Origin: a virus
Virus record (IMG/VR): IMGVR_UViG_3300009149_007655
DNA length: 64,000 nt
Strand: one strand, 5' to 3'
The translations under genes and the position numbers were made by a program. Shown here piece by piece: positions 2,089 to 2,427 of the stretch (positions are counted from its first letter, which is position 1; each line of letters opens with the position of its first letter). Below the pieces are notes generated by a model. The model was not told where the DNA came from and did not search any database. It worked only from the letters and a program-made list of their open reading frames with translations.

Positions 2089-2427
2089 TTAACCCTCCCC
2101 TTCACATCTATTTACTTTAATATCACCCCAGCTATCTTTTTCTCCGAGGTATAACATCTTACCATTATACATTATTGCCATATTGCCTTCATGACAAAAT
2201 ATTTGAGTGTCTTTCTTTCCTGCAATTGCCTTTGGAACTTGATGATTTTGTTGAGTTTGGTCTTGTACTATCTCTCTTCCGGTTTGGACAATACTTTTTA
2301 GATCATCCTTGTTCTCATCAAGAGATTTTTTTATCGCCGGAACAGCAATTGCAGCCAAAATTCCAATAATACAAATTACTATCATCAATTCAATTAAGGT
2401 AAAACCTTCTTTAAATCTCTTATACAT
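2089..2427 (-). CDS. type IV pilin-like protein (prepilin N-terminal cleavage/methylation domain)
   Basis: Start re-assigned to the internal Met (MYKRFKEGFTLIELMIVICIIGILAAIAVPAI). That gives the class III signal peptide G-F-T-L-I-E motif and places an AGGAGG RBS 5 nt upstream. A C-terminal Cys pair (FCHEG...NRCEGEG) matches a pilin D-region disulfide. The original ORF call (to 2487) overlapped the MTase gene. Confidence 0.7.
   Translation of the reverse strand: MYKRFKEGFTLIELMIVICIIGILAAIAVPAIKKSLDENKDDLKSIVQTGREIVQDQTQQNHQVPKAIAGKKDTQIFCHEGNMAIMYNGKMLYLGEKDSWGDIKVNRCEGEG

Follow-up and report, generated by a model that had tools for sequence, protein, structure and literature searches.

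A pilin-like protein with a Cys-bounded C-terminal module in a large phage: a candidate modifier of host type IV filaments

Introduction

Why should a large phage carry, among its replication genes, a small protein that begins like a type IV pilin and ends in a module of its own? The question is raised by a 112-residue protein encoded in a viral sequence of 64,000 nucleotides, IMG/VR record IMGVR_UViG_3300009149_007655 (the window, by which the whole of this stretch is meant throughout). On the matches and alignments given below, the N-terminal ~60 residues are those of a bona fide type IVa-like prepilin, the C-terminal ~35 form a conserved Cys-bounded β-module restricted to this group of phages, and the gene itself is real, translated-looking and embedded in a co-directional block of replication and nucleotide-metabolism genes. 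As to function, the reading that we prefer, and hold tentatively, is that of a phage 'mini-pilin', which would enter, cap or stall a host filament during infection and so change a phage receptor or the function of the pilus. Blocking or capping of type IV pili (T4P) or of the type II secretion system (T2SS), with superinfection exclusion as a possible outcome, had already been put forward in an earlier note on this DNA; a role of this kind, or one that alters these systems, is plausible and has a direct published precedent (PMC12952977).

Results

A class III signal on a phage gene

The protein, MYKRFKEG/FTLIELMIVICIIGILAAIAVPAIKKSLDENKDDLKSIVQTGREIVQDQTQQNHQVPKAIAGKKDTQIFCHEGNMAIMYNGKMLYLGEKDSWGDIKVNRCEGEG (the slash marks the predicted cleavage site), runs on the minus strand from an ATG at 2427-2425 to a stop at 2091-2089, as read from the list of open reading frames (ORFs) and the sequence. 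Its predicted mature form has 104 residues and a mass of 11.5 kDa; the three Cys lie at precursor positions 19, 78 and 108, the first of them within the hydrophobic helix. The N-terminus reads as a class III signal, MYKRFKEG/FTLIE, with a basic leader of eight residues, G-1, F+1 and E+5. It matches N_methyl (PF07963) with 31.1 bits against a gathering score of 21.2 (E 1.5e-7), TIGR02532 with 32.6 bits against a cut-off of 16.3, and in addition PHROG 3433, 'pilin' (residues 6-42), and five further PHROGs; in a six-frame regular-expression scan of the whole window, the motif occurs this once. By its leader, by G-1/F+1/E+5, by the two family matches and by the α1 comparisons described below, the gene is a member of the class III signal superfamily. 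The earlier note's description is borne out: the product of this phage gene has a canonical prepilin signal, its mature form is short and a pair of Cys lies towards its C-terminus, with both families above their cut-offs and the pair invariant.

The ATG is supported as the start by a strong Shine-Dalgarno sequence, AGGAGG, at a spacer of 4 nt, by the leader lengths of the homologues, and by the gene calls for the identical protein on two independent metagenome contigs, which begin at this codon too. In most homologues with a class III signal, the Gly that ends the leader is found at residue 4-8, and in two at residues 11 and 16; the alternative upstream TTG at 2487 would yield a leader of 28 residues, unlike any of these. 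The start preferred earlier thus stands, as does its strong ribosome-binding site, but the overlap with the methyltransferase gene is not removed by it, only shortened from 68 to 8 nt (ATGTATAA, 2420-2427). Against the AT-rich background, no convincing promoter or terminator of its own was seen for the gene.

As the genome is AT-rich and has many spurious ORFs, a frame of only 112 residues could in principle be a chance ORF or a mis-called gene. The strong ribosome-binding site, the significant matches to hidden Markov models (HMMs), 28 homologues with conserved Cys, Trp and Gly, and the conserved synteny all speak against this, and the homologue family together with the synteny effectively refutes it; we give it a negligible chance.

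A hydropathy scan finds no polytopic membrane protein in the window, and hence no candidate for an A24 prepilin peptidase; nor does Peptidase_A24 have a match among the ORFs scanned against Pfam or PHROGs, which are a subset of those in the window. A phage-encoded prepilin peptidase was rejected on the hydropathy result. Since no such candidate was seen in the window, processing would have to be by the host enzyme, as the earlier note had expected, with the cleavage itself a prediction from the signal.

A pilin helix, a variable linker and a predicted small β-sheet

Alignment of the homologues divides the protein into three parts: the conserved class III signal with its hydrophobic helix, a variable linker, and the C-terminal module. 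The AlphaFold2 model obtained with the family alignment (mean predicted local distance difference test score, pLDDT, 79.9; predicted template-modelling score, pTM, 0.34) makes residues 11-58 helical (pLDDT up to 97), gives low confidence to a linker at residues 59-75, and folds the module, at residues 76-105, into a β-meander of 4-5 strands (pLDDT 84-94). As the pTM is only 0.34, the model does not define how module and helix are placed to one another.

When the family profile is compared with solved structures, positions 1-53 align to the α1 helix of pilins (E 1e-13 to 3e-6 / 1e-6). The matches extend to position 53 or 56 in Geobacter PilA-N (2m7g) and in the pilins of Myxococcus (PilA), PAK and Neisseria (PilE), and over the first ~40 residues in PpdD (6gv9) and GspG (5wda); Thermus PilA5 (6xxe) is matched as well. 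The α1 segment is nearly identical to the major-pilin consensus, G14 and P22 included (mature numbering); in T4a pilins, F1, E5, G14 and P22 are required for processing, assembly and the partial melting of α1-N in filaments. The α1-C/linker region of the window protein contains NKDDLKSIV, a motif that it has in common with the closest sub-group.

The head of type IVa major pilins is not recognised, as PF00114 (Pilin) gives no match at E<=0.1. Among the NCBIfam models, PilA_Myxo (37.9 against a cut-off of 400) and PpdD (36.9 against 138) match the N-terminus only and stay below their cut-offs, and the same is true of the T2SS equivalogs GspH (34.9/80), GspG (32.8/88.85), GspI (15.4/44.35) and GspJ (10.9/64.85). 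A globular domain of FimU/GspH type is found neither by Pfam nor by fold comparison, and the module profile has no meaningful match among PDB sequences. A C-terminal Cys-pair region is present as in major pilins, the pair being invariant and the bond itself predicted; unlike the geometry of a D-region, however, the C78-C108 span encloses the entire β-module, 31 residues in all. In the model, the succession of α1, variable loop, small sheet and disulfide mirrors the layout of a miniature pilin, with membership of the head fold unproven. An origin of the module from an RCC1 blade, suggested by the repeat-protein match P0153, was rejected (hhalign probability 1.3%).

A family of Cys-stapled modules

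An exhaustive HMMER scan of 1.84 billion representatives recovered a family of 26 sequences, rising to 28 with two further loci, all of them metagenomic. One, P0121, is 59% identical to the window protein; about two dozen others have 92-146 residues and are 30-45% identical. The class III motif, E+5 included, is found in 23 of the 26. Over 22 aligned homologues C78, W100 and C108 are invariant, and G81, G95 and D102 nearly so; the module is conserved more strongly than the linker, and its Cys-to-Cys length is constant at 31-32 residues across the family. Its consensus is C-x2-G-K-x2-I-x-I-x-G-x2-Y-x-L-G-x-K-D-x-W-G-D-L-x4-C-E.

We define the family by C-x2-G-x(9-10)-G-x2-[YF]-x-[LI]-G-x(2-3)-[DN]-x-W-G-D-[LIV]-x4-C at the C-terminus, following an export or anchor signal. 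Residues 78-108 of the window protein are such a 'WGD' Cys-stapled module (64.5 bits with the module HMM); they read C-x2-G...G-x2-Y-x-L-G-x-K-D-x-W-G-D-I-x4-C over 31 residues, after which the protein ends with C108EGEG. Tandem double modules occur in P0122, P0123 and P0154.

Other searches returned either pilin N-termini or nothing. Apart from the protein itself, a word-index search for homologues gave nothing but ordinary pilins matched at the N-terminus, and such N-termini also swamped the results when the full family alignment served as the profile; the module-plus-linker alignment gave nothing significant, such searches being insensitive for a module of 36 residues. A scan of IMG/VR with one N-terminal peptide, that of P0121, retrieved 26 viral contigs with N-terminal pilin-like matches only, and IMG/VR pattern scans with the window protein and with the module of its sub-group found no family member. 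No match to the window protein was obtained by tblastn among 50,697 phage records, and narrow patterns for two sub-groups found no relatives of the module in 185,579 species-representative genomes (GTDB). A metagenome scan added only two further phage loci, both with the same synteny. By these searches the module family is previously undescribed, and within the sensitivity of the narrow sub-group patterns it is specific to phages.

The same module on other anchors

The module HMM, run on six-frame translations of the window and 48 loci (the window, L001 and L002 have the same sequence and are counted once), detects the module 22 times, spread over 9 distinct phage loci; the other 37 loci have no copy. 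There is one copy each in the window, L029, L034 and L035, two each in L030, L031 and L036, four in L033 and eight in L032. In L030 (9688-10011), in L031 (7389-7751) and in several copies of L032, the module is anchored by a plain transmembrane (TM) helix that follows a positively charged segment. The eight copies of L032 are tandem paralogues that occupy 2487-5478, in the interval from topoA to queD; the prepilin signal is intact in one of them and degenerate in another (3954-4331; a class III motif with M in place of G-1), and the other six have a plain TM helix. The four copies of L033, a phage-like contig with a different gene context, span 663-2139 and 5208-5516; here, lipoprotein signals precede the copies at 1224-1670 and 1702-2139 and a Sec-type signal the one at 663-1193, and each of these lipoprotein and Sec copies has an additional ~90-residue domain and the variant motif SSYDE…LQPIRC.

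All these anchors, as predicted, put the module outside the cytoplasm, as would fit a disulfide-bonded domain, and as the paralogues carry the same module on non-pilin anchors, the module, rather than pilus polymerisation, may be the functional core. The protein would then be a periplasmic effector, in which the stapled module is the functional unit, the prepilin end is one interchangeable anchor and no pilus is polymerised; its target could be a conserved component of the envelope or of the incoming phage, the peptidoglycan or a component of the outer membrane, with a block of DNA injection or of the tail lysozyme as by T4 Imm/Sp. The 22 copies in nine loci, the paralogues on signal-anchor TM, lipoprotein and Sec-type signals and the decayed motif in L032 (G-1 to M) favor such an effector; so do the conservation of the module above that of the linker, unlike the hypervariable heads of true pilins, the tandem growth to eight copies, which fits an arms-race effector, and a fast-evolving lipoprotein gene in the same block (5389-6078). 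It does not account well for two features of the prepilin end. Every phage that has the topoA-queD slot has at least one copy with intact G-1/F+1/E+5, and E+5 is needed in T4P for assembly, not for membrane anchoring; furthermore, α1 is almost the major-pilin consensus including G14 and P22, beyond the needs of a simple anchor. We therefore regard a module-only effector as the main alternative to the mini-pilin, possible though on the unlikely side.

Somewhat more doubtful to us is a wider proposal, in which the disulfide-stapled module would be a new phage-specific extracytoplasmic domain delivered by four export routes (prepilin, signal-anchor, lipoprotein and Sec). In it, the prepilin copy would ride the pilus or pseudopilus machine to or beyond the outer membrane, and the tandem arrays, of up to eight copies, would be diversifying envelope effectors or superinfection-exclusion factors of a hitherto undescribed kind.

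A conserved slot between topoA and queD

The genomic context is readable for eight distinct relatives, L029-L036, and in L029, L030, L031, L032, L034, L035 and L036 the pilin-like gene lies between topoA and queD; L001 and L002, with the identical protein, have the same arrangement as the window (Table 1). There are thus nine slot-bearing phage contigs (L029-L032, L034-L036 and L001/L002), each of which keeps at least one intact class III copy. The co-directional order around the gene is ATPase, DUF2201, GyrB-like, lipoprotein, topoA, methyltransferase, pilin-like, QueD and ResIII helicase, with a spacing of -8 nt on the methyltransferase side and +5 nt on the QueD side. In L029-L032, L034 and L035 the methyltransferase/Mrr_cat gene has no counterpart between topoA and the pilin-like gene; as the slot of these relatives lacks it, it is taken for a lineage-specific insertion.

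Table 1. Coordinates of the pilin-like gene, its parts and neighbors in the window, and of module-less class III proteins in related contigs.
Feature	Sequence	Position	Strand	Basis
Pilin-like gene, 112 aa, stop (2089-2091) included	window	2089..2427	-	ORF, PF07963/TIGR02532, syntenic orthologues
Shine-Dalgarno AGGAGG	window	2432..2437	-	sequence
Leader MYKRFKEG, residues 1-8, predicted prepilin peptidase cut after Gly8	window	2404..2427	-	sequence and homologues, cleavage inferred
Mature N-terminus FTLIELMIVICIIGILAAIAVPA, α1-N; F1, E5, G14, P22 (mature numbering)	window	2335..2403	-	HMM matches, AlphaFold2 helix pLDDT 95-97
α1-C and variable linker, residues 32-77	window	2197..2334	-	alignment, AlphaFold2
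Cys-bounded C-terminal module, residues 78-108: CHEGNMAIMYNGKMLYLGEKDSWGDIKVNRC	window	2104..2196	-	alignment, AlphaFold2, module HMM
DNA methyltransferase N6/N4 fused to Mrr_cat-like nuclease domain, upstream neighbor	window	2420..4060	-	Pfam
QueD-like 6-pyruvoyl-tetrahydropterin synthase, downstream, right slot border	window	1676..2083	-	PF01242 1.6e-32, phrog_2389
Topoisomerase II A-subunit, left slot border	window	4076..5392	-	phrog_551; PF00521 in relatives
Module-less class III protein	L037	6067..6327		
Module-less class III protein	L039	12895..13155		
Module-less class III protein	L041/L042	13563..13856		
Module-less class III protein	L043	11909..12136		
Module-less class III protein	L045	11901..12197		

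The GC content of the pilin-like gene (0.336) and that of its third codon positions (GC3, 0.257) equal the values of its neighbors, which argues against recent acquisition. Its sequence nevertheless diverges faster than theirs: between L029-L032 and the window, the neighboring enzymes are 43-58% identical and the pilin-like protein ~30%, and in the closer L035, where identities to the window enzymes are 65-81%, no genes evolve faster than those for the pilin-like protein (53%) and the lipoprotein (52%). Divergence of this kind is characteristic of proteins that are exposed on the envelope and engaged in conflict. The idea of a recent host-derived moron was rejected, the gene being a resident, syntenic and fast-evolving member of a phage-specific family.

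The lipoprotein-type gene of the block (5389-6078, minus strand; 229 residues, …VSLSAC) lies between the genes for both topoisomerase II subunits and has no family match; by its signal and its divergence it is a second fast-evolving envelope protein of the replication block. In related jumbo contigs there is, a few kb downstream of topoA, a second short protein with a class III signal (Table 1), of roughly 60-85 residues, which lacks the module and has an acidic low-complexity tail ending in …G.MN[KQ]L. A conserved pair of an ATPase (phrog_1297) and DUF2201/DUF2201_N (7888-10391 and 10703-11161, both minus strand) precedes the topoisomerase genes, and a NADAR-domain protein is found just beyond it.

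The phage and its host

The GC content of the window is 32%, and it contains no tRNA genes. Its replication and transcription genes include those for proteins like the β and β' subunits of a multisubunit RNA polymerase, for topoisomerase II subunits, ribonucleotide reductase, UvsX, Dda and a deoxynucleoside monophosphate kinase; it also encodes a baseplate OB domain of gp5/VgrG type, an Amidase_2 lysin and a family-9 glycosyltransferase of heptosyltransferase type. This gene content is that of a large bacteriophage with a contractile tail. When IMG/VR was scanned with the A subunit of topoisomerase II, 13 related contigs were found, and as these reach 207 and 223 kb, the lineage includes jumbo phages. 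A megablast search with 20 kb against the 50,697 phage records found no relative, and no host can be inferred, since the best topoA matches in cultured phages are only 23-30% identical; the lysin and the heptosyltransferase are hints, not proof, that the host is probably Gram-negative.

Among the window ORFs scanned, again a subset, neither pilus machinery (pilB/C/M-Q, gsp genes) nor an integrase was found. This bears on the possibility that the protein is a functional pilin of benefit to the infected cell or to the phage, which builds or decorates pili for adhesion, biofilm formation, motility, DNA uptake or as a receptor, with the pilins of the archaeal virus SNJ2 and P-PilA of Xylella prophages as models. 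Host machinery can build virus pilins into dominant surface filaments (PMC12426801), the α1 helix is major-pilin-like, and the size is near that of Thermus PilA5 (111 residues) and Geobacter PilA-N (61 residues). The genome, however, looks large and lytic, without an integrase in the ORFs scanned, so that a long-term benefit to the host is unlikely; the head is tiny, and conserved instead of diversified; and no accompanying pilus genes were found. We consider a functional pilin improbable.

More improbable still is a lysis-related membrane protein, resembling an i-spanin, an antiholin or a regulator of the holin. An N-in TM helix, a long periplasmic helix and periplasmic Cys do give the protein a superficial likeness to i-spanins and to the T4 antiholin RI, yet the gene is ~25 kb away from the Amidase_2 lysin (27864-28379) and inside the replication block, has no partner o-spanin, and its specific prepilin motif would be left unexplained. 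Such a role has very little in its favor.

Just downstream of the lysin, at 27428-27742 (minus strand), the window encodes a single-TM protein of 104 residues with the N-terminus MVRINLLRDSQRRE…, which may simply be a membrane protein of the lysis cassette. A PilN-like reading of it, prompted by the N-terminal MVRINLL, which resembles the N-terminal motif by which PilN binds PilM, is at most a lead: Pfam, NCBIfam and PDB lent it no support, and a literature search did not retrieve the motif.

Further proteins of the window are unusual for other reasons. An 838-residue protein (12366-14882, minus strand) matches the shoulder domain of the Major Vault Protein (MVP; PF11978, 7.7e-20) and, just under the cut-off, the vault repeat PF17795, which makes it a phage-encoded protein of MVP-like type; the product of L035 23-1510 resembles its C-terminal part, as judged by eye without alignment. 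A 346-residue protein (58403-59443, plus strand) matches the Volactin family of actin homologues (PF25216, 6.8e-74) over nearly its full length; the family is named after a haloarchaeal protein, while the phage otherwise looks bacterial. A 127-residue protein (25500-25883, minus strand) matches the Mon2/Sec7 DCB domain with 28.2 bits against a Pfam cut-off of 25.6; the match is probably spurious, and unexplained.

Discussion

A proposed mini-pilin during infection

In the reading that we prefer, that of a mini-pilin acting on a host filament, the protein would be expressed early in lytic infection and inserted into the inner membrane of the host with N-in/C-out topology. The host prepilin peptidase (PilD type) would cut off MYKRFKEG and N-methylate the Phe, and in the periplasm C78 and C108 would be joined in a disulfide by the Dsb system of the host; the mature protein of 104 residues would then be taken up by the T4P or T2SS machine of the host via its major-pilin-like α1. 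Because its head is minimal and unlike that of the host pilin, incorporation would disturb the filament, which would be altered, capped or stalled. The infected cell would thus stop presenting a functional pilus receptor or stop exerting pilus-dependent functions, the purpose being an envelope modification of the superinfection-exclusion type.

Several points weigh against this scheme. That the protein is cleaved, methylated, disulfide-bonded and incorporated is predicted from its sequence, and that the host has T4P and the phage uses pili are assumptions. The C-terminal part has no recognisable pilin head, and the pTM of the model is low. The presence of the module on plain TM, lipoprotein and Sec anchors suggests that display in the periplasm may matter, and not filament assembly. 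Finally, L038, L040, L044 and L046-L048 have no such gene within 8 kb of topoA; as several members of the wider clade lack it there, the pilin-like gene is accessory in that clade.

T4P and T2SS are virulence factors, phage receptors and DNA-uptake machines, and if the module has a defined target in the envelope, it could represent a new way to shut down or re-purpose them; the paralogue arrays would in that case be a natural library of variants. With its ~100 residues, the protein is compact and should be easily testable. Even if nothing about it is pilus-related, the family documents the exchange of export signals around one periplasmic module.

Comparison with known systems

Phage pilins have so far been seen as anti-phage surface mimics in temperate Pseudomonas phages, and as builders of a receptor in one archaeal provirus; the present family extends the pilin theme to uncultured jumbo-type lytic phages. 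That phage proteins with class III signals exploit the pilus system of the host is already known (PMC12952977, PMC12426801). A close parallel in proposed effect is the prophage protein P-FimU of F10-like phages of Pseudomonas aeruginosa, which becomes part of the pilus tip and so keeps out phages that bind there (Sztanko et al., Cell Rep 2026, PMC12952977). It shares with the window protein a phage-encoded prepilin-type N-terminus, fast evolution under phage-phage pressure and, as predicted for the window protein, dependence on the host pilus machinery, and the change to the pilus that excludes competing phages, shown for P-FimU, is what we propose here. P-FimU, however, is a full-size minor pilin of FimU/GspH fold with extra loops, expressed from the prophages of temperate siphophages, whereas the window protein has a novel module of 31 residues, its gene lies in the replication block of what appears to be a large lytic phage, and it has paralogues that are not pilin-like.

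PilA-like proteins and N-terminal-only PilA proteins (~60 residues) are found in virulent Pseudomonas and other phages, where superinfection exclusion has been suggested as their role (PMC12952977). They resemble the window protein in being short, in keeping α1 with the head reduced or lost, and in belonging to non-temperate phages; the module-less class III proteins of L037, L039, L041-L043 and L045 resemble the N-terminal-only PilA of Pseudomonas phages. They differ in being recognisably derived from host PilA, as is also seen in P-PilA of Xylella prophages with ~50% identity to the host protein (PMC12952977), whereas the window protein matches cellular pilins at the universal N-terminus only. 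The pilins PilA1 and PilA2 of the SNJ2 provirus are assembled by host machinery into dominant filaments, which serve as the receptor for another virus (PMC12426801). They too are virus-encoded class III proteins that hijack the assembly machinery of the host; they are of archaeal type and come from a temperate pleolipovirus, whereas the window motif is of the bacterial GFTLIE type.

With the T4a pilins and pseudopilins themselves (PAK PilA, 1oqw; Neisseria PilE; 2m7g, 6xxe, 6gv9 and 5wda), the window protein shares the short leader, G-1/F+1/E+5, the 53-residue α1 with G14 and P22 and the C-terminal Cys pair, and its size is near that of the smallest pilins; it differs from them in being phage-encoded, in having no head-domain match, in lying away from pilus genes and in having a Cys pair that spans the whole module. 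T4 Imm and Sp and the lipoprotein receptor blockers T5 Llp and Cor are small early envelope proteins of lytic phages that guard the infected cell. They provide a functional analogy for a module-centered role; the window protein is unrelated to them in sequence and structure, and, unlike it, they have no prepilin signal. Exclusion by T4 is also cited in PMC12952977. Set beside all these systems, what is new in the present one, as read from the genomes, is a module family that replaces the host-like head, a fixed slot in the replication block of jumbo phages, and the combination of four export signals with tandem expansion.

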